From: Gammaproteobacteria bacterium | Lineage (GTDB): Bacteria > Pseudomonadota > Gammaproteobacteria > G965277405 | NCBI GenBank assembly: GCA_965277405.1 | Contig: OZ255726.1 | Location: 2,052,675 to 2,084,674, forward strand | Direction of reading: 5' to 3' | Length of the DNA stretch: 32,000 nucleotides | In this document: piece after piece, positions 1 through 11,596 of the stretch | Position numbering within the stretch: the first letter of the stretch is position 1 | Layout: each line of letters begins with the position of its first letter | The notes under the pieces: generated by a model | The model's database searches: none | What the model was told of the DNA's origin: nothing | What the model saw: only the letters and a program-made list of their open reading frames with translations | Position numbers and translations under genes: made by a program

Positions 1-79
1 CGGTTTGTGCCTGCGGAATGCGCCTTGCAATTGCAGGTAAATTCGCTCACTCAGCGAGTTAGTCAGATGTTGCTTGGGG
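1..79 (+). mobile_element. Partial MITE-like repeat (right-end portion, truncated by window edge)
   Basis: Positions 1-79 align by eye with the right ~80 bp of the full copy at 30549-30851 (cggtttgcgccttgcaat...cagcgagttaatcagaggttccctaag). The terminal inverted repeat is degenerate here (gagttagtcagatgttgcttgggg). Confidence 0.6.
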
Positions 80-218
80 AACATATAAGATAATTTAAAC
101 GAAATTCAATACCTTACATATCTTACATACATTACAATAGCAAAAGTAGTGTACGTATTAACTGCCTGTAGCTGTGTACACGCTTTAACAATAAGCAGCA
201 ACACAGCGATAAGTTCAT

Positions 219-347
219 AAAAAAAGCCCCCTTACGCCGAGGGTAAACCTAGACGATGCGAGGGCTTTAGGACGCATTTAAGCGGAGCCTGCGAAAAGAA
301 TTTCATTGGTATGAAAAGCTAAGCCAAACTGTAGTCGGTTAAACTAT
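219..347 (-). ncRNA. tracrRNA: Predicted tracrRNA (anti-repeat near the 5' end, intrinsic terminator at the 3' end)
   Basis: Plus-strand 326-343 (AAACTGTAGTCGGTTAAA) is the exact reverse complement of repeat positions 3-20. Read on the minus strand, the flanking GG (325-324) can form G.U wobbles with the repeat UU, and UUCAUACC further 3' can pair with the repeat 5' end GUUGUGAA. On the minus strand, 244-226 (ACCCTCGGCGTAAGGGGGC) forms a GC-rich hairpin followed by T7 (225-219). The 5' end is inferred from the promoter-like motif at 354-383. Confidence 0.65.
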
Positions 348-353
348 CGGATT

Positions 354-383
354 ATCATACCACAACATTCATTTTTTACACAA
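354..383 (-). promoter_or_regulatory. Sigma70-like promoter for tracrRNA (minus strand)
   Basis: The minus strand reads TTGTGT (383-378), 18 nt, then TGG-TATGAT (extended -10-like, hexamer 359-354). This places a start near A347/G348, just upstream of the anti-repeat. Confidence 0.4.
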
Positions 384-388
384 AAGAT

Positions 389-3300
389 ATGAAAAAAATA
401 CTTGGTATAGATGTAGGAAGCAATTCTATTGGTTGGGGCTTAATTACAGCAAGTGACAGTGGCTTGTGTAGCGATGTTGTAGCCTTAGGATCCCGTATAT
501 TCATGAAAGCTATTCAGGACGACAGTACCAAACCTAAAAACGTCCAGCGCCGTACAAGTCGTTTGTTACGCAGGGTTTTAGAAAGGCGCGCTAGGCGCAA
601 AAGAAATTTGGCAAACTATTTAATATCGCAAAATTTACTCCCAGCTGCACTCAGCGACAATTTTCACCAAGAAGGCTTATTAAATAGTTTAGGAGACCCA
701 TATGAACTACGTGCTAAAGCCTTAGACGACCAGCTTAAACCCTATGAATTAGGTCGTGTTTTGCTGCACTTTGTAGCGCGTAGAGGCTTTTTAAGTTCAC
801 GTAAAAGCTTACTCGGAGACTTGGTAGACGACCCTGACATGCAAGCTTATTTAAACGAAGTAGCAGAGGAAAGCGCCCAGGGTAACAGCCAAACAGAAAA
901 AGAGGAAAAGCAGTTTTTACTAGAAATAAGCATTTTACGCAACAAAATTATACTTTCTGGCAAGCGCAGCCTAGGTGAATATTTGTTTGCTTTAGTCAAT
1001 AGTAACAAAAGAAACAGGAAGCATGCCTTTGAGATTATTCGTACTGATAGAGCCATGTATCATGAAGAGTTTACCCAAATATGGCAACAGCAAACAACCT
1101 TTTTTGCGCACTTACCCAACAGCTTTATTGAAAAGGTTGAAAAAATTATTTTTTACCAAAGACCCCTTAAATTAAAAAAAAACCGCATAGGAAAATGCTC
1201 GTTAGAAAGGAATAAATACCGTGCAAAACAAGCCACTTTACAAGCGCAGCAGTTTCGATACTTACAAGACATTAACAACCTTATCATTTATCAAGGTAAT
1301 GCTGCCGACCGCCCACTTACTCATGAGGAAAAAGAAAAACTTTATAAAATTTTAGAACAACAAAAAAAAATCACTTACGCCGTTATTAAAAAAAAATTAG
1401 GGTTACCTAGAACAATCACTTTTAATCTGCAAGCAAGTAAGAAAGAACTTCAAGGCAATGAGACTGCTTGCAATATTCGCTCTGTTATCGGTGAAGTCTG
1501 GGACAATATGGAAGATTTAGAACAAGAAAAATTGGTGGAAGACTTGCTGACCATGAAGAAGAAGTCTGCGTTAAAAAGACGTCTGATAAACTACTGGGGG
1601 TTTAGCGTAGACGCAGCCATACAACTTTGTTTGCTCGAATTTACTGCAGGTCATAGTAACTTATCACTTAAAGCTCTTAATAAATTATTACCTCATCTAT
1701 ATGAAGGGAATATGTATAGCGATGCAAGAATAAAAGCTGATTATGAGGTTACCCAAGAGTCAAAAAACTTAGACCGTCTCGGCAGCCCGCCTGTAACTTG
1801 TAACCCCATTGTCAATAAAGGATTGCACGAATTACGGCGCTTAGTTAACGCAATTATCGCCCAGTACGGCAAGCCTGATATTATTCGTGTGGAAATGGCT
1901 AGAGACTTAGAGCAAAATACTAAGCGCTACAAAGCAGCAGAAAAAACACGTAAGGCGAATGAAACACGTAATGAAAAAGCAGCAACGCAGTTTGCATCTT
2001 TAATGGGTCCGCACCATAGCAAAAAACCCTCGCTAAATGACAAAATTAAATATCGACTATGGCAAGATCAAAACAAACTTTGCGCCTATAGTTGCCAAAC
2101 CATTGCTGCTACGCAAGTATTTAGTCTAGATACCGAAATAGACCATATTTTGCCGCGGAGCAAATCCTTAGATAATTCTTATCCTAATAAAGTTATTTGT
2201 TTTAGTCAGGAAAATCAGAAAAAACACGATACAACGCCCTTCATGGCTTGGGGAGGTGACACTGACAAGTGGCGCAATATGCTACAGGCAGCAAATACAT
2301 GGAAGATTAAAAAGAAGCTTAGAGACAATAAGCTACAGCGTTTTAAAATCACTGCAGAAGAGTTAAAGGAAATAGCACGTGGCGCTGTTACTACGCAGCT
2401 CAACGATACCCGCTATATTGCACGCGAAGCCTTAAGTTATCTAGCTACATTAGGTTGCGATACGCATGCTGTAAAAGGTCACACTACTGCATGGCTACGG
2501 GGTAGACTGGGCTTTAATTTCTTACTTAATGTTGATGATACAAAAAATCGTGAAGATCACCGGCATCATGCCGTTGATGCTGTCGTAATCGCTGCCACAT
2601 CGCGCCAGCTATATCAAAAAATTGTCGATGCAATAAAACAACAACAACAACATGGTTACAAAGCACCATTGATATTAGATGACTATGCCCACATTCGCCA
2701 ACGCTTGCTCGTGCTGTTACAACACGTTACTGTATCTTATATACCACAATACCAGCTAACAGGCGCGCTGCACGAAAGCAGAGGGCTTGGGTTTATCACT
2801 GTAAAGGAAGACAATACTGAAATTACGGGAACAGTTAATAGAACGGCTGTAGATAAAAAATTGAATAGTAAGCGTGCTTTAAAAATTATTGATAAACAGG
2901 TGCGTGAACTAATTTTAGCACAGCTAACAGCACATAATAACAATCCCAAAGAAGCATTTATAGACAATAACTACCCTTTGCACAAAGATGGTAAAACCCC
3001 CATTAAGCGGGTGCGTATATGGAAGACAAAGATATCAACAGAAAAACTCCATGCTACCAAATTAGCCATACATGACCAAGCGGGCAAGGTATTCAAATGG
3101 TGTCTTTTTGGCAACACCCACCATGTAGAAGTCATTAAAGAAAAAGCAACGGGGAAAATTGCAAGTAAATTTATTACGATGTACGCAGCCAGTTGTCGTT
3201 TAAAGGGTATTGGGGTAGCGCAATCTGCTGCGGTGATAACCAATCATGGGCAAGAGTATGAATTTATTATGGCGCTGCATATCAACGACACGGTAAGTTT

Positions 3301-3523
3301 GCGCATCACAGGCAATGACGAACGCGTGTTGTATAGGGTGCAGAAGTTCAGTTTGGATACGAACACTCTTTTCTTGTGTTTAAACGTGGCGGCAACTTTA
3401 CACCATAAAAATCAACAGCTTAGCATGAACATCAACACCGCTAATTTTGAAAAATACCAACCTATGTTACATAAGGTCAATGCTATAGGTCAAGTTGTGC
3501 GTGTTATTGCCAGTTATCCTTAA
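389..3523 (+). CDS. cas9: Cas9, compact type II-C-size endonuclease (1044 aa)
   Basis: RuvC-I motif is GIDVGSNSIGWGLI at the N-terminus. An arginine-rich bridge helix follows (RRTSRLLRRVLERRARRKRNL). The HNH motif is EIDHILPRSKSLDNSYPNKVICFSQENQKKHDTTPF and the RuvC-III motif is HRHHAVDAVVIAA. cas1, cas2 and a CRISPR array follow directly, and no csn2 or cas4 is present. Confidence 0.95.
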   Translation: MKKILGIDVGSNSIGWGLITASDSGLCSDVVALGSRIFMKAIQDDSTKPKNVQRRTSRLLRRVLERRARRKRNLANYLISQNLLPAALSDNFHQEGLLNSLGDPYELRAKALDDQLKPYELGRVLLHFVARRGFLSSRKSLLGDLVDDPDMQAYLNEVAEESAQGNSQTEKEEKQFLLEISILRNKIILSGKRSLGEYLFALVNSNKRNRKHAFEIIRTDRAMYHEEFTQIWQQQTTFFAHLPNSFIEKVEKIIFYQRPLKLKKNRIGKCSLERNKYRAKQATLQAQQFRYLQDINNLIIYQGNAADRPLTHEEKEKLYKILEQQKKITYAVIKKKLGLPRTITFNLQASKKELQGNETACNIRSVIGEVWDNMEDLEQEKLVEDLLTMKKKSALKRRLINYWGFSVDAAIQLCLLEFTAGHSNLSLKALNKLLPHLYEGNMYSDARIKADYEVTQESKNLDRLGSPPVTCNPIVNKGLHELRRLVNAIIAQYGKPDIIRVEMARDLEQNTKRYKAAEKTRKANETRNEKAATQFASLMGPHHSKKPSLNDKIKYRLWQDQNKLCAYSCQTIAATQVFSLDTEIDHILPRSKSLDNSYPNKVICFSQENQKKHDTTPFMAWGGDTDKWRNMLQAANTWKIKKKLRDNKLQRFKITAEELKEIARGAVTTQLNDTRYIAREALSYLATLGCDTHAVKGHTTAWLRGRLGFNFLLNVDDTKNREDHRHHAVDAVVIAATSRQLYQKIVDAIKQQQQHGYKAPLILDDYAHIRQRLLVLLQHVTVSYIPQYQLTGALHESRGLGFITVKEDNTEITGTVNRTAVDKKLNSKRALKIIDKQVRELILAQLTAHNNNPKEAFIDNNYPLHKDGKTPIKRVRIWKTKISTEKLHATKLAIHDQAGKVFKWCLFGNTHHVEVIKEKATGKIASKFITMYAASCRLKGIGVAQSAAVITNHGQEYEFIMALHINDTVSLRITGNDERVLYRVQKFSLDTNTLFLCLNVAATLHHKNQQLSMNINTANFEKYQPMLHKVNAIGQVVRVIASYP

Positions 3524-3547
3524 ATTTTGCTAGCTGTACAAAAAATA

Positions 3548-4441
3548 ATGATTAAACGCATTATTGATATTGGGCAAGCAAGTTACTTGCATATTCAGCA
3601 TCAACAACTATGCATTGAACAAGCAGGTAAACAAGTAGGGCGTATTCCCATAGAAGATATAGCTATTATTATTATTCACGATACTGCTAGCTACTATACT
3701 CATGCCTTGTTTATCGAGCTATTAAGACATAATGTTGCAGTAGTGTTTTGCGACCGCCATCATCTACCCTTGGGACAACTAGCCCCTATAGCATCTCATA
3801 GTTTGCATACCAAAATCATTCACGAGCAAATACAAGTTAAAAAATCCACTAAAAAACGCCTGTGGAAGCTGATAGTCCAAGCAAAAATTCGTGAACAAGC
3901 CACCACTTTGAGGTTGACAGGCAAGGATGCACAAAAAATAAGCGCCCTTGTTGACCAAGTAAAAAGTGGAGATAGTGCTAATGTAGAAGCCAATGCTGCG
4001 CGTTGCTATTTTAATGAATTATTTGGCAACGCCTTTAGACGCGACAGGCAACAAGCTGGCATAAATGCTCTGTTAAATTATGGGTATAGTGTAGTGCGTG
4101 CAATGTTTGCGAGGGCTATTGTTGCCACGGGCTTACACCCCACTTTTGGCATCCAGCATTCTAACCAATACAATCACCTATGTTTAGCAGATGACTTAAT
4201 GGAGCCATTTCGCCCTTGGGTGGATGAAGCGGTGTATGCGCTGACACATAAAAACGAGGTTATATCCGTTGACAAAGCAAGCAAAACGACGGTACTTAAT
4301 CTGTTGAGTAACAATGTAGTATGGACGAAGAAACACCAACCTTTTATGGTTGTGAGCCATTATTTAGCGGCAAACCTCAAACAAGCTTTAGTAACGAACC
4401 AGCCTGTTTTTAGCATTCCACAAAGAGTTGACAAACAATGA
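3548..4441 (+). CDS. cas1: Cas1 integrase
   Basis: Cas1 motifs are present (NALLNYGYSVVRA; GLHPTFGIQHSNQYNHLCLADDLMEPFRP). The gene lies between cas9 and cas2. The ORF track starts at TTG 3527, but ATG 3548 (MIKRIIDIG) seems the more likely start. Confidence 0.9.
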   Translation: MIKRIIDIGQASYLHIQHQQLCIEQAGKQVGRIPIEDIAIIIIHDTASYYTHALFIELLRHNVAVVFCDRHHLPLGQLAPIASHSLHTKIIHEQIQVKKSTKKRLWKLIVQAKIREQATTLRLTGKDAQKISALVDQVKSGDSANVEANAARCYFNELFGNAFRRDRQQAGINALLNYGYSVVRAMFARAIVATGLHPTFGIQHSNQYNHLCLADDLMEPFRPWVDEAVYALTHKNEVISVDKASKTTVLNLLSNNVVWTKKHQPFMVVSHYLAANLKQALVTNQPVFSIPQRVDKQ

Positions 4442-4797
4442 GCAGCAGGGATTGTACTTACAATAAAGTTATATTTGGCGGACTTAAAACCATGTGGATA
4501 ATTGTGCTATTTGACTTGCCTACAGTAAGTAAAACAGAACGCAGAGCCTATACTGTTTTTCGTAAGCATTTACTCAATGACGGTTTTAATATGATGCAGT
4601 TTTCCGTGTACATGCGTCATTGTGCTAGCGAAGCAAACGCGCAGGTGCACGAGACGCGCATACAAGCAGCCTTACCGAGCTTAGGAGAGGTAAGGGTCAT
4701 AAAAATAACCGATAAGCAATTTGGTAAAATTCAAGTTTTTTATGGTAAAAAACGCAAAAAAACCGAAATTCCGCCATTACAAATGGATCTTTTTTAA
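4438..4797 (+). CDS. cas2: Cas2
   Basis: The start overlaps the cas1 stop in an ATGA arrangement. The core MWIIVLFDLPT...FSVYMRHC is typical of the Cas2 ferredoxin fold with the beta1 Asp. The CRISPR array lies immediately downstream. Confidence 0.9.
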   Translation: MSSRDCTYNKVIFGGLKTMWIIVLFDLPTVSKTERRAYTVFRKHLLNDGFNMMQFSVYMRHCASEANAQVHETRIQAALPSLGEVRVIKITDKQFGKIQVFYGKKRKKTEIPPLQMDLF

Positions 4798-4847
4798 ATG
4801 CCACTTAGGCATACAACCCTTACCAACCAAGTAGTTTCCCACTTTGT

Positions 4848-6126
4848 ACTTTAACCGACTACAGTTTAACCACAATTCACAACAATCCGCACGACCATCT
4901 GCGAGACAACCATACTTTAACCGACTACAGTTTAACCACAATTCACAACTCTCATTGTTCAAACGGCAGGGCATTGTTAACTTTAACCGACTACAGTTTA
5001 ACCACAATTCACAACAAAGAGAGTTAATGAATAGCTACATGGAAGACTTTAACCGACTACAGTTTAACCACAATTCACAACCGGTCACGTTGTCGTGACG
5101 GCAATGTATTTACTTTAACCGACTACAGTTTAACCACAATTCACAACGACGAATGATGATACTCGCTACTGTACCAACTTTAACCGACTACAGTTTAACC
5201 ACAATTCACAACACCTAGGACTGTTGCGATTTAGGTAATCAACTTTAACCGACTACAGTTTAACCACAATTCACAACTGGTTTCGGCACGTTAAAAAAAT
5301 AGCAGACACTTTAACCGACTACAGTTTAACCACAATTCACAACCGAAAGCTACGGACGACGAAATAAGCTTGGACTTTAACCGACTACAGTTTAACCACA
5401 ATTCACAACACTCCGAATGCAATCATCAATACCGCATTTACTTTAACCGACTACAGTTTAACCACAATTCACAACAGAAATCGGCTAAATCCGACTAAAT
5501 CGTCTACTTTAACCGACTACAGTTTAACCACAATTCACAACAACAATATGAGCGTGATAATTGCGTTTCAACTTTAACCGACTACAGTTTAACCATAATT
5601 CACAACAAAAGCTAAAGGGGATATCTGCTTTGAAGGACTTTAACCGACTACAGTTTAACCACAACAATGGCTGTGTTATTGAACCTGCGGCTATACTTTA
5701 ACCGACTACAGTTTAACCACAATTCACAACAACTGACCATAGCTTGTTACGATTTAGCAAACTTTAACCGACTACAGTTTAACCACAATTCACAACAATT
5801 TGACCGCTGTCATAAACTTTAGAATAACATTAACCGACTACAGTTTAACCACAATTCACAACAATTTAACCGCTGTCATAAACTTTAGAATAACTTTAAC
5901 CAACTACAGTTTAACCACAATTCACAACAACCGACCATAGCTTGTTACGATTTAGCAAACTTTAACCGACTACAGTTTAACCACAATTCACAACAATTTA
6001 ACCGCTGTCATAAACTTTAGAATAATTTTAACCGACTACAGTTTAACCACAATTCACAACAAATACAAGTTGCCAAACTTACTGATGCAAACTTTAACCG
6101 ACTACAGTTTAACCACAATTCACAAC
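4848..6126 (-). CRISPR. CRISPR array, 20 repeats of 36 bp and 19 spacers of 29-30 bp; crRNA probably transcribed from the minus strand
   Basis: The plus-strand repeat is ACTTTAACCGACTACAGTTTAACCACAATTCACAAC. Repeat starts are 4848, 4914, 4980, 5046, 5112, 5177, 5242, 5308, 5374, 5440, 5506, 5571, 5637, 5695, 5761, 5827, 5893, 5959, 6025 and 6091. The reverse complement begins GTTGTG, like other type II-C repeats. Orientation is inferred from the strand of the tracrRNA terminator and from G.U-compatible pairing. Confidence 0.95.
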
Positions 6127-6151
6127 AGTTGTGAGAATCGTGATAAAAAGG

Positions 6152-6449
6152 CTGGGGTGTTACCCTCTTGACAAAAATGCTCTAATACAGTGAGTTGGTT
6201 GGCAATTGTTAATGGTAGATGATGGTACGGTGCGAGCCAAAGCATGCCTGCCACGGATGCAACATAGCAAGTGAGGGCAATTACTGCAATCTGCAAGTAT
6301 ATTGAACACAGGGATGGAAAAAAAGCTGCGCTAACGTCGTTGCAGCACTTGATAATACCACCAAGTATTATTTGCGCACTGCGGCTAGTTATCATCAGCG
6401 TTTTTTCTCCGTCTCGCCCATCATGGACTTAATCAGAGATTCCTTGTAG
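6152..6449 (-). mobile_element. MITE-like repeat, near full length, inverted orientation
   Basis: The reverse complement of 6449-6330 is nearly identical to 19987-20110 (gattaagtccatgatgggcgagacggagaaaaaacgctgatgataactag...). The rest is diverged but alignable. The copy begins 25 bp after the last CRISPR repeat. Confidence 0.7.
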
Positions 6450-6685
6450 GGTTATATTATACACTAGTCTTGACCACCCACGGGTGAGCAGATTGGTGTT
6501 ATGCAGGATAAACGCGGTCAAAGTCCAGCAATCGACAGCAACACCCAAATTGACAAAACCAAGCCCTAAAATTAGAAATATCAGCCATTTAGTGGCAATT
6601 TATCATTCACTAGCTAGTATTGACCCTGACGATATGACTTTTTTTTATGTCATTCTTATACGTTAAAGCGATTGTCGGGGGGTCA

Positions 6686-8155
6686 ATGCGTCGCACTATA
6701 TGTTTCGTCCATAAGGGGCAGATAAGAGAGTTGGTACCGAGAGAACCAACACAAACTGTCCTGAATTTTCTGCGGTATGAAGACGCCTTGACTGGTACGA
6801 AGGAAGGCTGCGCTGAAGGAGATTGTGGTGCATGCACCGTTGTCCTTGGCGACCTTGAGCTAGACGGCTCAATTCGCTATCTGGCCGTCAATTCCTGCAT
6901 TCAGTTTTTACCAATGCTGGATGGTCGAGAGTTGATTACCGCAGAAGACCTGAAATTAGCAGACGGCTCTTTGCATCCAATCCAACAAGCAATGGTTGAC
7001 CACAACGCCACCCAATGCGGCTTCTGCACCCCAGGATTTGTCATGTCTCTGTTTGCTGAAAAGCACGGCAGCAATTCTGCTGATACTTGGGACGTCAATA
7101 ATGTACTTGCGGGGAATCTGTGCCGCTGTACTGGGTATGGGACCATTATTGCGGCTGCAAAGAGCGCAGCTGCAAGCCACGCTGACGATCAATTTGATGG
7201 GACAATGGAGACCAGAGCCGGCATGCTGAAATCTCTTCAGCAAAATCCCCCCCTTGCTCTGCAGGCAAAAGGTAACCGCTATTTCGCTCCCACATCAATA
7301 GCTGAGCTTGCCGATTTGCTGGCAACCTATCCGCAGGCCATCCTCCTTGCTGGTGCGACGGATATCGGGCTGTGGGTGACTAAGCAGCATCGTCAACTCG
7401 ATACACTCATTTATCTCGGGCGGATACAAACACTCAAAGCAATGGTACTGGATGAAAACTCGATCTCGATTGGCGCGGGCGTCACGTATGCAGAAGCTTG
7501 GAAAACACTGGGGTCAGAGTATGCGGATCTGCATGAACTAATCCGCCGCATTGGCTCTACACAGATCCGCAATTCCGCAACCATTTGCGGTAATATTGCC
7601 AACGGATCGCCGATCGGAGATATGCCGCCAGCGCTGATCGCGCTTGACGCCACGGTGACCCTAACGAGCAAACGAGGTAGTCGTAGCATCGCGCTTGAAA
7701 AATTCTTCATCGGCTATAATACGCAAGATTTGCAGCCGGGGGAGTTTGTAGAAAAAGTATCTATACCAAGACCATCGGCTACTAAGCAGTTCAGGGCCTA
7801 CAAAATATCTAAAAGGTTTGACCAGGATATTTCAGCTTTGTGTGCCGCTTTTAATCTCACATTGGCAGGGATAACGGTCAAAGACATCCGCATATGTTAT
7901 GGGGGCATGGCTGGTACGCCCTTGCGCGCTCAACAAACCGAAGCTGCCGTCATCGGCAAAGACTGGGTGCGCGCAACCATTGATACGGCCTTGCAGGCTA
8001 TGAGCAAAGATTATCAACCGCTCAGCGATATGCGGGCGAGTGATCGGTACCGGATGGCGGTGGCACAAAATCTGTTGTTGAAATTTTTTATTGAGACAAC
8101 AGATCGGCACACGGCAACCCGTCTGCTCGGCGATATGGAGCGCGCCCATGCGTAA
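6686..8155 (+). CDS. xdhA: Xanthine dehydrogenase small subunit (2Fe-2S plus FAD-binding)
   Basis: 2Fe-2S motifs are present (CAEGDCGACTV, CGFCTPG, CRCTGY), as is the FAD-binding LLAGATDIGLWVTK. The start is probably ATG 6686, preceded by GGGGGG. The track ORF starts at 6647. Confidence 0.9.
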   Translation: MRRTICFVHKGQIRELVPREPTQTVLNFLRYEDALTGTKEGCAEGDCGACTVVLGDLELDGSIRYLAVNSCIQFLPMLDGRELITAEDLKLADGSLHPIQQAMVDHNATQCGFCTPGFVMSLFAEKHGSNSADTWDVNNVLAGNLCRCTGYGTIIAAAKSAAASHADDQFDGTMETRAGMLKSLQQNPPLALQAKGNRYFAPTSIAELADLLATYPQAILLAGATDIGLWVTKQHRQLDTLIYLGRIQTLKAMVLDENSISIGAGVTYAEAWKTLGSEYADLHELIRRIGSTQIRNSATICGNIANGSPIGDMPPALIALDATVTLTSKRGSRSIALEKFFIGYNTQDLQPGEFVEKVSIPRPSATKQFRAYKISKRFDQDISALCAAFNLTLAGITVKDIRICYGGMAGTPLRAQQTEAAVIGKDWVRATIDTALQAMSKDYQPLSDMRASDRYRMAVAQNLLLKFFIETTDRHTATRLLGDMERAHA

Positions 8156-10499
8156 TTCTGTTCCTAGCAAAACCGAAATTCGCGGTAAGATTGGCAGGCA
8201 GCTGATGCACGACAGCGCTGTCAAGCAGGTTGCAGGCGCAGCGCACTATATTGATGATGTTGCGGAACCTAAGGATCTGCTGCATCTGTATGTCGCCAAG
8301 AGCACGATGGCCCACGCAACAATCAGTAAACTCGACGTGTCGCAAGCCAGCGCTGCCGCAGGTGTCGCCGTTGTCTTGACTGCAGCAGATGTGCCTGGCG
8401 TCAACGATGCCTCTCCCGTGGCAGGGGACGACCCAGTTTTTGTAGAAGACCTAGTTGAATATGTCGGACAGTCGTTGTTTGTCGTTGCCGCCGATAGCCT
8501 GGAGCAGGCGCGAGCGGCCGCGGCTCTTGCTGTTGTGGAATATGAACAACTCCCTACTGTGCTGACAGTTGAGCAAGCACTCGCAGCGGGTTCGTTCGTG
8601 CTGCCAAGCCGTCACCTTGTCAAGGGAGACCCTGCATCAGCCCTCAAAACGGCCGTAAATAGATTGCAAGGTCGCGTTGAAATTGGTGGTCAGGACCATT
8701 TTTATCTTGAAGGTCATATCTCCGTGGCAACCCCGCGCGAGGATGGGGATGTCCACGTTCATTGTTCGACGCAACACCCGACTGAAGTTCAGCATAATGT
8801 CGCAAAGTTTCTTGATGTGGCGGACCATTCGGTCTGCGTTGAAAACAGGCGAATGGGCGGTGGGTTTGGCGGCAAGGAAACACAAGGGGCGTGGTTTGCC
8901 GCGATGGCAGCATTAGTGGCAACAACAACCGGGCGCCCAGCAAAACTAAGGGTGGACCGGGATGATGATATGATTATGACTGGGAAACGCCATGACTTTG
9001 TGATCGAGTATGATGTCGGGTTTGACGATGACGGCAAGATTGACGGCGTGGAATTTATGTTTGCATCGCGCTGCGGCCGCTCTGCGGACCTATCTGCTGC
9101 GATCAACGACCGAGCCATCTTCCATGCGGATAACTGCTATTTTATGGAAAATATCTCGATTATTTCGCACCGTTGCAAGACCCATACGGTCTCCAATACC
9201 GCCTTCAGGGGTTTTGGCGGCCCGCAGGGGATGATCGGCGTTGAACGGATGATTGACGAGATTGCACACGCGCTTGGCAAAGATCCTCTCGACATCCGCA
9301 AAATCAACCTATACGGCAAAACGGAGCGCAATGTCACTCCGTATCATATGGAGATTAAAGATAATATTATAGCGGAAATTATCGCCGATCTTGAGAAAAA
9401 ATCAGCCTATGCGGCGCGCGTCAAGGCTGTCCGTGAGTTTAATGCCAGCAGCGCGTATCTGAAAAAGGGCATTGCGTTGACACCTGTCAAATTCGGTATA
9501 TCTTTTACCACGACATTCCTCAACCAAGCTGGCGCACTCATTCATGTTTACACTGATGGCAGCGTCATGCTCAACCATGGCGGCACCGAGATGGGTCAGG
9601 GTCTGTTCATCAAGGTGGCCCAGGTTGTTGCCGAAGAATTGCAGATTGATATCGAGAGGGTAAAAATCACAGCAACGACAACCGACAAGGTGCCAAACAC
9701 GTCAGCAACAGCCGCGTCCTCTGGATCTGATATGAACGGCAAGGCGGCACAAATCGCCGCCAGAACAATTAAAGACCGATTAACCAAGTTTGCAGCAGAG
9801 CATTATCAGGTTGCTGCAAACGCTATTCGCTTTCTGCCCAATCGCATCCAAATTGGCAATAAGGTTGTTACATTTGCCGCACTGGTCGAGCAAGCCTACC
9901 TAAACCGAATTTCTCTTTCCGCGACTGGATATTATAAAACACCGAAAATCCACTATGACGCGGAAAACTATTCTGGACGCCCGTTTTACTATTTCGCATA
10001 CGGAGCCGCTGTCGCGGAAGCCATGATTGATACGTTGACTGGTGAGAGCAAAATCATGCGGGTTGATATCATCCATGATACTGGCAAAAGCCTTAATCCA
10101 AGCATTGATCTTGGTCAGATTGAAGGGGGCTTCATCCAGGGAATGGGATGGCTGACAACCGAGGAACTGGTGTTTGACGAGCGGGGTAACCTGATGACGC
10201 ATGCCCCGTCTACATATAAGATCCCAACGTGCAGCGACCGTCCCGCTATTTTCAATATGGAAATCTATGCTGGTGGCGAGAATGTGGAAAACAGCATTCA
10301 CAAGTCAAAAGCAGTTGGCGAACCGCCGTTAATGCTGGCGATTTCTGTCTTTAATGCGCTAACCGACGCCGTCAGAAGCGTTGCTGACTACCGCGAATTT
10401 CCTGCACTGGATGCCGCTGCGACACCAGAGCGAATTCTGCACGCCGTGCAGGATTTGCAGGAAAGGATGCGCAATAGCCAAAGGACTCCACCCGCATGA
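8148..10499 (+). CDS. xdhB: Xanthine dehydrogenase molybdopterin-binding large subunit
   Basis: The GGGFGGKE motif and family-typical length are present. ATG 8148 overlaps the xdhA stop (8153-8155), suggesting translational coupling. The track ORF starts at 8091. Confidence 0.9.
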   Translation: MRNSVPSKTEIRGKIGRQLMHDSAVKQVAGAAHYIDDVAEPKDLLHLYVAKSTMAHATISKLDVSQASAAAGVAVVLTAADVPGVNDASPVAGDDPVFVEDLVEYVGQSLFVVAADSLEQARAAAALAVVEYEQLPTVLTVEQALAAGSFVLPSRHLVKGDPASALKTAVNRLQGRVEIGGQDHFYLEGHISVATPREDGDVHVHCSTQHPTEVQHNVAKFLDVADHSVCVENRRMGGGFGGKETQGAWFAAMAALVATTTGRPAKLRVDRDDDMIMTGKRHDFVIEYDVGFDDDGKIDGVEFMFASRCGRSADLSAAINDRAIFHADNCYFMENISIISHRCKTHTVSNTAFRGFGGPQGMIGVERMIDEIAHALGKDPLDIRKINLYGKTERNVTPYHMEIKDNIIAEIIADLEKKSAYAARVKAVREFNASSAYLKKGIALTPVKFGISFTTTFLNQAGALIHVYTDGSVMLNHGGTEMGQGLFIKVAQVVAEELQIDIERVKITATTTDKVPNTSATAASSGSDMNGKAAQIAARTIKDRLTKFAAEHYQVAANAIRFLPNRIQIGNKVVTFAALVEQAYLNRISLSATGYYKTPKIHYDAENYSGRPFYYFAYGAAVAEAMIDTLTGESKIMRVDIIHDTGKSLNPSIDLGQIEGGFIQGMGWLTTEELVFDERGNLMTHAPSTYKIPTCSDRPAIFNMEIYAGGENVENSIHKSKAVGEPPLMLAISVFNALTDAVRSVADYREFPALDAAATPERILHAVQDLQERMRNSQRTPPA

Positions 10500-11596
10500 C
10501 GGATTGGGCAGATATCCTCAGCAAACACATGGAAAACGGCTGCCACTCCATCTTGTTGACGATTGCCGCCGTCCGCGGTTCTACCCCACGGGAAACTGGG
10601 ACGCGGATGTTGGTCACGATGCAGCAGACGTTCGGAACAATCGGCGGCGGAATGCTCGAATATCGGGCAATTCAACACGCAACTGGGCTGTTGCAGTCTG
10701 CTACGACTACCCCAGCAATTTTAAAAATCCTGCTCGGTCCAGAGCAGGGGCAATGTTGCGGTGGGCTGGTTGAACTGCTCGTCGCGCCTCTTGGTCAGCA
10801 AGATCTTGTGTGGATGAAAAATATTGTGGCGGCGAACAAACACTCACGGTGTGCTGTTCTGCATACCCGCTGGCAGGGCGGACAGATCCAGCGCCAGGTA
10901 TTCTGTAACCTTGATGACATTCCTGCCAATGAAAATTTGCTCAGACAACTATCGAGGATGGTTAGCAGCGATGGCACACCCCTTGTTGCAACCACCCCTG
11001 CGGGCGCAGATTTTACAGTTATAGAAGCCTTGAGCACTAACAAATTTCACCTTGTGCTGTTTGGTGCAGGTCATGTCGGCAAAGCCATCGTCCAGACTCT
11101 GGCAGGCTATCCCTGCTCGATCGCATGGGTCGATGAGCGCGCCGATATGTTCCCAGCAACCCTCCCTGCGATTGTAGAAAAATGGGTTACACCCTATCCT
11201 GCACGGTTGGTTGGTGAAACCCCACCAAATAGTTATTTCCTCGTGATGACCCATAGCCATCAACTGGATATGGAGATATGTGCGGCCATATTGAAGCGCG
11301 GTGCTTTTGGATATCTTGGGTTGATTGGCTCGAAAACGAAGCGGAATAAATTTGTAAAACGGTTAAAATTCAGAGGGTTTTCTTCAACGCGTATCAGTAA
11401 ACTCGTTTGCCCAATCGGGGTTGCTGCCATCAGCGGCAAGCATCCAAATGAAATTGCCATCAGTGTCGCAGCGCAGTTGCTGCAGCACCAGGAAATGCGT
11501 CAGTTGGCATCGAGAGATCTCGCAGTGTTTACCAGAGTTGAGGAAAAACGTAAGAAACTGACTCAGGTTACTGCAAAGTTTGAGACTAGTTTATAG
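10496..11596 (+). CDS. xdhC: XdhC/CoxI-family xanthine dehydrogenase maturation protein
   Basis: The start overlaps the xdhB stop in an ATGA arrangement. The N-terminal domain is XdhC-like and a Rossmann-like LVLFGAGHVGKA is present. The gene sits directly after xdhAB. Confidence 0.8.
   Translation: MTDWADILSKHMENGCHSILLTIAAVRGSTPRETGTRMLVTMQQTFGTIGGGMLEYRAIQHATGLLQSATTTPAILKILLGPEQGQCCGGLVELLVAPLGQQDLVWMKNIVAANKHSRCAVLHTRWQGGQIQRQVFCNLDDIPANENLLRQLSRMVSSDGTPLVATTPAGADFTVIEALSTNKFHLVLFGAGHVGKAIVQTLAGYPCSIAWVDERADMFPATLPAIVEKWVTPYPARLVGETPPNSYFLVMTHSHQLDMEICAAILKRGAFGYLGLIGSKTKRNKFVKRLKFRGFSSTRISKLVCPIGVAAISGKHPNEIAISVAAQLLQHQEMRQLASRDLAVFTRVEEKRKKLTQVTAKFETSL

Follow-up and report, generated by a model that had tools for sequence, protein, structure and literature searches.

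Is the type II CRISPR-Cas9 locus at the beginning of a 32,000-nucleotide (nt) stretch of a gammaproteobacterial genome (contig OZ255726.1; hereafter, the window) a working immune system, and from which strand are its guide RNAs read? The first 6.1 kb of the window hold a complete set of parts, i.e., cas9, cas1, cas2, a repeat array, and a single inverted anti-repeat. The original prediction, which was made from the letters alone, had placed both the CRISPR RNAs (crRNAs) and the trans-activating CRISPR RNA (tracrRNA) on the minus strand, antisense to the cas operon. The analysis presented here supports this placement, and we assign a probability of about 0.88 to the proposal as a whole, namely, that this is a working type II-C adaptive immune locus with minus-strand guide RNAs.

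The first line of evidence regarding the strand is the tracrRNA gene. A perfect 18-nt inverted copy of the repeat core is found at 326–343; it is the only one, with 0.04 expected by chance. Read on the minus strand, this region has the predicted anti-repeat, structured 3′ tail, and terminator that characterize a tracrRNA. A covariance model (R1), built from the upstream regions of 14 loci in the minus-strand sense, gave 37 matches among the 82 sequences searched, all of which lie on the strand opposite cas9. The match in the window spans 218–350 of the minus strand (86.9 bits, E 7.5e-21), and the matches include loci whose Cas9 is 31–39% identical to that of the window. In nearly all loci the distance from the 5′ end of the match to the start of cas9 is a few tens of nt; it is larger in L002, L003, L006, L010, and L068. 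In the R1 alignment, 95% of cells are paired versus 84% in shuffles, and compensatory (double) changes are seen in 15 of the 21 modelled pairs, with all five pairs of helix 3 showing them. The nexus hairpin, GAAA-loop-UUUC in the window, takes the forms GGAA/UUCC, GGAG/CUCC, GAAGC/GCUUC, and GGAAC/GUUCC in relatives. The tracrRNAs of the clade to which this Cas9 belongs (see below) share an invariant GCUUUUCAUACCAAUGAAAU core; the 18-nt sequence adjoining the window's anti-repeat, TTCATTGGTATGAAAAGC, is present without change in 15 loci, on the cas9 strand just upstream of cas9. The GC hairpin followed by seven T residues, which had been expected on the minus strand only, is found as stem 243–227, then C and T7; the terminator scan reported this minus-strand terminator and none on the plus strand near the tracrRNA. 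The terminator hairpin is ~24 nt longer than in most relatives, owing to an insertion. Rfam has no family for the tracrRNA or the repeat, either at the gathering threshold across the whole window or at E ≤ 1 in positions 1–6700. It should be noted that another helix, UUUCAU/AUGAAA, which was proposed by RNAalifold and by the covariance model, was rejected as being, in our view, an alternative conformer of the free RNA: the lower stem formed with crRNA nt 3–8 requires its 5′ arm, and its 3′ arm is part of the GAAA/UUUC hairpin, which covaries better.

The second line of evidence is the pairing of the repeat with the anti-repeat. The reverse complement of the repeat begins as originally stated (GTTGTGAATTGTGG...AAAGT), and the full crRNA-sense repeat is GTTGTGAATTGTGGTTAAACTGTAGTCGGTTAAAGT. 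The minus-strand duplex of the window has 32 pairs, including 5 G·U, involves repeat nt 1–36, and has a predicted energy of -39.6 kcal/mol, versus ~18–22 pairs and -26.8 kcal/mol for the plus-strand duplex; the argument that the flanks of the anti-repeat pair through wobbles in the minus-strand orientation is thereby borne out. The duplex is composed of a 22-base-pair (bp) upper stem with its perfect core at 326–343, a 2-nt tracrRNA bulge, two pairs, a UU/UU internal loop, and a 6-bp lower stem. In all ten loci with known repeats, nt 1–36 of the minus-strand repeat are paired in a common architecture, in which a long upper stem is followed by a bulge in the tracrRNA, a short GC step, an internal loop rich in U, and a lower stem of 5–6 bp; these duplexes (-37 to -48 kcal/mol) surpass their plus-strand counterparts by 1.4 to 15.6 kcal/mol in every locus. 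The repeats of L003 are instructive in this respect: 23 of the 26, those nearest cas2, depart from the tracrRNA complement by a G-to-A change, while the three distal ones keep the older form, and the change yields a G·U wobble only in a minus-strand crRNA. On the plus strand, there are at most 45 nt between the anti-repeat and the cas9 start, with no scaffold or hairpin. Because the predicted tracrRNA is a minus-strand RNA and its anti-repeat corresponds to the plus-strand sequence of the repeat, the crRNA would be the minus-strand transcript of the array. The production of both RNAs antisense to the cas operon, in the style of Neisseria and Campylobacter, is thus supported, as far as sequence can tell, by 37 of 37 model matches and by full pairing in 10 of 10 loci.

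The effector appears to be an intact Cas9. Its Pfam domains are HNH_4, Cas9_a, and RuvC_III, and it matches the NCBIfam equivalog TIGR01865 (cas_Csn1) over its full length with 599 bits (cutoff 100). Landmarks include D8 of RuvC-I, an Arg-rich bridge helix at about residues 54–75, the RuvC-II glutamate E502, the HNH domain at 565–618 (D585, H586, N609), and RuvC-III at 669–755 (H726/H727, D730). Residues D8, E502, D585/H586, N609, and H726/H727/D730 are unchanged throughout a 30-sequence family alignment. The counterparts of D8 and H586 in the alignment with GeoCas9 are its D8 and its position 582, where the deposited chain has Ala; we take this chain to be the nuclease-dead H582A mutant, D8 and H582 being the catalytic residues of GeoCas9. 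A single large effector with a split RuvC, an inserted HNH, and catalytic residues in place identifies the system as type II. The best matches among solved structures are all II-C enzymes (Geo, Thermo, Nme1, and Hpa Cas9; sequence E 1e-74 to 1e-52); the II-A enzymes St1 and Sa score below them, and the large SpCas9-type enzymes lower still. By this ranking among solved structures, the Cas9 groups with II-C rather than with II-A or II-B orthologs. Its identity to the Nme1, Geo, Thermo, and Hpa enzymes is 20–25% in the structural alignment of an AlphaFold2 model. This model is mediocre (predicted local distance difference test score 67, predicted template modelling score 0.36); it was used for fold-level matching only and was kept out of any inference on the domain that interacts with the protospacer adjacent motif (PAM). 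All top Foldseek matches of the model are Cas9 proteins, the best being Nme1Cas9 (E 7e-37). The original prediction had described the RuvC-I, bridge helix, HNH, and RuvC-III motifs as intact and the protein as an uncharacterized ortholog, and had named an inactivating catalytic substitution and near-identity to a characterized Cas9 as grounds for abandoning it. The family alignment contains no such substitution, and the protein is ~50% identical to its nearest relatives outside its own strain and 20–25% identical to the nearest solved enzymes. As regards the epithet "compact", the solved II-C chains have 1082–1092 (Nme1), 1087–1095 (Geo), and 1055 (Hpa) amino acids (aa), so that 1044 aa is an ordinary II-C size and the enzyme is not especially compact.

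The other genes agree with this assignment. Cas1 matches TIGR03639 (cas1_NMENI) with 291 bits (cutoff 120), and Cas2 matches TIGR01573 with 68 bits; PADLOC labels them Cas1_II and Cas2_II. An NMENI-type Cas1 together with Cas2 constitutes a type II adaptation module. The open reading frame (ORF) map and the Pfam matches of the window neighbors revealed neither csn2, as in II-A, nor cas4, as in II-B. A second assembly with the same locus, L001 (ENA ERZ26859072), has no further cas gene among its gene calls within 10 kb upstream or ~6.5 kb downstream, and the genes that flank the locus (upstream in L001, downstream in the window) are unrelated to CRISPR. The operon is thus restricted to cas9-cas1-cas2, which is the II-C layout. 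Every element of the predicted layout was found where stated, as was the array of 20 repeats and 19 spacers at 4848–6126.

The comparison of the window with L001 reveals the polarity of spacer turnover. The flanks of the two loci are 99.2–99.5% identical, while the 13 cas2-proximal spacers of the window and the 19 of L001 are private and all different; the two arrays have in common six cas2-distal spacers. Because only these distal spacers are common, new spacers enter at the cas2-proximal end, the one that would be transcribed last. Acquisition at the transcription-downstream, cas-proximal end is likewise seen in L003, in which the variant repeat spreads from the cas2 end. All strain-specific spacers abut the leader end. 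The leader has a constant length of 48–52 nt in 13 loci and a weakly conserved sequence; its role in acquisition is suggested by analogy with N. meningitidis (PMC12477760). Sixteen of the window's 19 spacers are distinct. The order of the ancestral spacers is A,B',B,A',B,C vs A,B,B,B,C,B' in the two strains; the duplication and different shuffling of these spacers imply that repeats of the older section have recombined with one another. The truncated repeat and four repeats with point mutations are all in the cas2-distal part, and the 12 repeats nearest cas2 are all intact. Repeat 13 has lost one copy of an internal direct repeat, CACAA/TTGTG, probably by slippage; the crRNA of spacer 13 may be defective, as the lower-stem segment is partly removed. 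Where the array ends on its transcription-upstream side, the last repeat and the adjoining flank make up a near-perfect palindrome, ATTCACAAC-A-GTTGTGAGAAT (6112–6140 in the window, 16133–16161 in L001), which resembles part of a repeat copied in inverted orientation.

The spacers were also compared with possible targets. The whole array has no match in 50,697 phage records, beyond a sub-significant one (E 0.4), and none in 72,556 plasmids; of seven IMG/VR scans with 22-nt PAM-proximal spacer seeds, six were empty, and the seventh, with spacer 7 of L001, gave a match. No self-targeting was found in the window or in L001, and the exact repeat is absent from the Joint Genome Institute (JGI) metagenome contigs. 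Spacer 7 of L001 matches the viral contig L083 (IMG/VR UViG_3300033075_001394) at 30 of 30 positions, and spacer 3 of L001 matches nearby at 27 of 31. This region of L083 (8840–9170) is made of direct and inverted 11-nt units (GGTATGATACA) in an iteron-like arrangement; a mobile element that is targeted by this species may have its replication origin here. The 30-mer matched by spacer 7 occurs also in five unrelated JGI metagenome contigs. Because the target sits in a tandem repeat and recurs in five other contigs, its flank is untrustworthy and no PAM is claimed; the search, which was aimed at a PAM, yielded none from the phage, plasmid, or IMG/VR matches. In a related array, that of L026 (8549–9010), seven spacers are variants of one sequence, CGATAGAGnnnnGAGGTTTCAATCCCGCTA, a sign that spacers were taken more than once from a multi-copy target whose core varies over 4 nt.

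Two other explanations of the locus as a whole have to be weighed. The default assumption for arrays, with the leader by cas2 and degenerate repeats at the far end, would have crRNAs and tracrRNA transcribed from the plus strand, co-directionally with the cas operon. The usual cues do fit it, since spacers vary at the end next to cas2 and mutated repeats and ancestral spacers are found at the far end; a plus-strand duplex of 18–20 bp starting near repeat nt 1–3 is possible (-26.8 kcal/mol), and the two L001 spacers that match the viral contig have a common plus-sense 3′ flank, TACAA. That flank, however, is merely the next unit of the targeted tandem repeat. Moreover, the cas9 ATG would leave a plus-strand tracrRNA only ~45 nt, with neither a hairpin scaffold nor a terminator, whereas the minus strand alone carries the covarying scaffold and terminator in all 37 matches, and the plus-strand duplex is the weaker one in each of the ten loci. 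The same misleading cues exist in Neisseria and Campylobacter, the arrays of which are experimentally antisense (PMC3737331). Co-directional transcription is, in our opinion, extremely improbable. Several observations weigh against the antisense locus being a working one: one repeat is truncated and several are mutated, most spacers lack a target in the phage, plasmid, and IMG/VR searches, the single perfect protospacer match sits in a tandem repeat, the covariation was counted on an alignment fitted to R1 itself, every RNA end is a prediction, the repeat-internal promoter is weak here (TTGTGG-16-TAAAGT, 7 of 12 positions, no TG, below the scan threshold), and no cas9 promoter is identifiable in the ~40 nt that separate the ATG from the tracrRNA start. 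Some of these, i.e., the truncated repeat, the four mutated ones, and the want of a target for any of the window's own spacers, together with the duplication of the ancestral spacers, would suit a decaying remnant that has lost immunity. Yet the three cas ORFs are of full length with conserved catalytic residues, the damage is confined to the cas2-distal part of the array, and two strains with 99% identical flanks carry entirely different new spacers (13 vs 19); missing targets are, in addition, to be expected for an uncultured host. We therefore consider decay very unlikely.

A separate matter, within the proposed antisense orientation, is how transcription starts. The original prediction had a TGnTATGAT-type promoter preceding the anti-repeat on the minus strand. 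Such an element, TGGTATGAT, is indeed found at 362–354, and its position is conserved: a TATAAT, TATGAT, or TATAGT box lies 7–9 nt before the anti-repeat on the minus strand in all 17 aligned loci. The motif alone is at chance level, with three occurrences of TGnTATRAT in 32 kb vs 3.2 expected; for this reason, the argument rests on position. A consensus promoter scan recovered neither this promoter nor any repeat-internal one, because both lack a good -35 element. The crRNA 5′ ends could be made by a promoter inside each repeat, in an RNase III-independent manner, as in N. meningitidis and C. jejuni, rather than by cutting a precursor. All 12 distinct crRNA-sense repeats of the clade end, at nt 31–36, in TAnnnT (TACAAT, TACACT, TATACT, or TAAAGT), which is the position of the Neisseria -10 box, and a TTGC/TTGT element (TTGy, repeat nt 9–12) lies 16 nt upstream. 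Acquisition at the transcription-downstream end also fits leaderless expression (PMC12638026, PMC12477760). Against this, the canonical TGn is present only in L002, and the match in the window, as stated, is poor; the TAnnnT bases also pair with the tracrRNA 5′ end, which is another reason for their conservation; a conventional precursor could be transcribed from the TG-TATAAT box at 6463–6456; and RNase III would find a good substrate in the 22-bp perfect upper stem. We give repeat-internal promoters somewhat less than an even chance. As for cas9, its start and that of the tracrRNA lie within ~30–40 nt of each other in the clade, with the tracrRNA -10 box inside the cas9 5′ leader; the two promoters would therefore have to interlock. 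A search for the cas9 promoter turned up no convincing candidate in the tracrRNA gene or upstream of it, and the sole -10-like element facing cas9 is the repeat-type TAnnnT box of the anti-repeat, TAAACT (340–345). That this box is the cas9 promoter, interlocked with that of the tracrRNA, is unlikely. If it were, transcription of cas9 and that of the tracrRNA would be in competition for one stretch of DNA, and a degenerate repeat would double as the effector promoter, with a built-in coupling of effector and guide-scaffold dosage; we know of no description of such coupling for type II systems.

The proposed working of the antisense locus builds on the genes present, the tracrRNA's strand and conservation, the geometry of pairing, and the polarity of spacer turnover; from these it extrapolates to exact RNA ends, the making of crRNA 5′ ends, nuclease activity, and a PAM. 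The plus strand would express cas9, cas1, and cas2. A tracrRNA of ~130 nt would be transcribed divergently on the minus strand, from a start ~40 nt from the cas9 ATG, under the extended -10 promoter and up to the intrinsic terminator at 219. Transcription of the array would run towards cas2, also on the minus strand, and yield crRNAs that each consist of a spacer followed by GUUGUGAAUUGUGG...; the repeat part of the crRNA would pair over its full length with the anti-repeat. The tracrRNA tail (nexus-like hairpin, second stem-loop, and terminator hairpin) may serve as the Cas9-binding scaffold. The resulting complex would cut PAM-flanked DNA with its RuvC and HNH sites, and Cas1-Cas2 would insert new spacers at the cas2-proximal repeat, the last to be transcribed. 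The features of the locus are collected in Table 1.

Table 1. Features of the type II-C locus, with positions in the window and the basis of each assignment
Feature	Positions	Strand	Description and basis
tracrRNA gene	219..348	-	~130 nt; model R1, homologues, covariation; predicted 5′ end G348/A347; 3′ end in T-run 226–219
Intrinsic terminator of tracrRNA	219..265	-	Extended G+C hairpin, core stem 243–227, then C + T7; terminator scan, alignment, fold
tracrRNA stem-loop 2	269..290	-	AGG..CGC-loop-GCG..CCU; predicted by folding; compensatory changes in all five pairs of helix 3 of R1
Nexus-like hairpin	293..304	-	GAAA-UUCU-UUUC; directly 3′ of anti-repeat; cofold; covaries in relatives
Anti-repeat	307..346	-	Predicted duplex with the entire 36-nt minus-strand repeat; RNAcofold and RNAduplex
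Putative tracrRNA promoter	354..362	-	Extended -10 TGGTATGAT, hexamer TATGAT 359 to 354; conserved position
cas9	389..3523	+	1044 aa, type II-C; ORF, Pfam, NCBIfam, family alignment, fold match
cas1, type II (NMENI) class	3527..4441	+	ORF start TTG 3527; L001 gene call maps to 3548; Pfam Cas_Cas1, TIGR03639
cas2	4438..4797	+	ORF start ATG 4438; L001 gene call maps to 4492; Pfam CRISPR_Cas2, TIGR01573, PADLOC Cas2_II
Putative spacer-acquisition leader	4798..4847		50 nt, cas2 stop to first repeat; transcription-downstream end of array
CRISPR array	4848..6126	-	20 repeats of 36 nt, 19 spacers of 29–30 nt; orientation by complementarity to minus-strand tracrRNA
Truncated repeat (repeat 13)	5637..5664	-	Lacks 7–8 nt of the segment forming the lower stem
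Ancestral block	5695..6090	-	Six spacers (three distinct, duplicated) and mutated repeats, common to L001 (L001 15716–16111)
Candidate external promoter of the crRNA precursor	6456..6463	-	TG then TATAAT, no -35; low confidence; read from sequence, absent from consensus scan output

The antisense RNA layout and architecture are ordinary for II-C systems and already documented; what is new here is the Cas9 ortholog and its guide scaffold. An array antisense to the cas genes was demonstrated experimentally in N. meningitidis and C. jejuni (Chylinski 2013, PMC3737331), and the II-C pattern of 3′-end spacer acquisition, repeat-internal promoters, and odd patterns of repeat mutation has been reviewed (PMC12638026, PMC5965381, PMC12477760). 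The N. meningitidis system (Nme1Cas9; PDB 6JDQ, 6JDV) has the same cas9-cas1-cas2 order without csn2 or cas4, 36-nt repeats, 30-nt spacers, an array antisense to cas, acquisition at the transcription-downstream, cas-proximal end, and the same overall Cas9 fold. Its repeat also begins with GTTGT and ends in a TAnnnT box. It differs in that its Cas9 is 22% identical and its tracrRNA scaffold unrelated in sequence; in the window's clade, unlike in N. meningitidis, the tracrRNA is divergent and immediately upstream of cas9, and the repeat-embedded promoter of the window (no TG, TAAAGT) is much weaker. GeoCas9 and ThermoCas9 of Geobacillus (PDB 8JTJ, 8UZA, 9AR4) are the top solved sequence matches (E 8e-74 to 4e-70) and resemble the present enzyme in size (1082–1095 aa in the solved chains) and domain order, but they are 22–25% identical, originate from Firmicutes, and use another guide RNA. 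CjCas9 is more distant (E 4e-29 with a truncated chain, 17% identity), and the C. jejuni tracrRNA lies between cas2 and the array. C. jejuni shares the antisense array and the promoters in repeats (PMC3737331, PMC5965381).

Beyond its own strain, the nearest relatives of this Cas9 are 47–52% identical and form a large clade, mostly of gammaproteobacteria, with proteins of ~1010–1070 aa. Its hosts include sulfur-oxidizing symbionts (the Gsub sponge symbiont JYIN01, Ruthturnera, Spongiihabitans), Methylococcales, Cycloclasticus, and Hydrogenovibrio, together with scattered Nitrospiria, Zetaproteobacteria, and others. The literature search found no characterization of a Cas9 of this clade; the sole mention is the Gsub repeat, listed as an array in a table only (PMC5361782). 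Locus order is identical throughout, and the repeats follow GTTGTGAwTTGCrG...GGTTAcAcT. The RNA of the window is the most divergent, its R1 score being 87 bits versus 93–139 bits in close relatives (L010, with 82, excepted); its repeat has TTTAACC...AAAGT where relatives have GTAACC...ACACT, its terminator hairpin carries a 24-nt insertion, and it lacks a covarying hairpin that spans the cas2 stop codon. In L002–L022, this hairpin of 9–14 bp (~30 nt either side of the stop codon) covaries between loci and might halt antisense array transcripts before cas2; the window has a different, 5-bp hairpin at 4801–4815.

Several further observations concern the surroundings of these loci. In L001, a 15-nt tandem duplication (cagcgataagttcat, 9806–9835) directly follows the 3′ end of the tracrRNA terminator; the window has a single copy there (204–218). 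L001 also has a DDE transposase ~3.5 kb upstream of cas9. In L018 (8598–10022), a related array is split between repeats by a 1.46-kb insertion, which may be an insertion sequence element or another insert. Directly downstream of the array, positions 6647–11596 of the window encode a xanthine dehydrogenase cluster (XdhA-like, XdhB-like, XdhC) followed by nucleoside or sugar ABC-transporter genes. The citrate synthase encoded in the window shares 66–73% identity with homologues from gammaproteobacteria (Spongiibacteraceae, Moraxellaceae, Marinospirillum). A hydrophobic ORF of 91 aa (6120–6395, minus strand) runs from 6395 into the last repeat, within the putative leader of the crRNA precursor; neither Pfam nor NCBIfam has a match for it, and it probably does not represent a gene.

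From the standpoint of technology, the locus represents a large Cas9 clade that is biochemically untried, has a definable single-guide scaffold, and is 22–25% identical to the II-C enzymes in use. The clade would offer a Cas9 with an unusually invariant single-guide RNA scaffold across several phyla; the value is incremental, many such orthologs having already been catalogued. For the biology of II-C systems, the locus would be a well-resolved natural case of arrays that grow opposite to the transcription start, and a case in which the standard cues of array orientation mislead.

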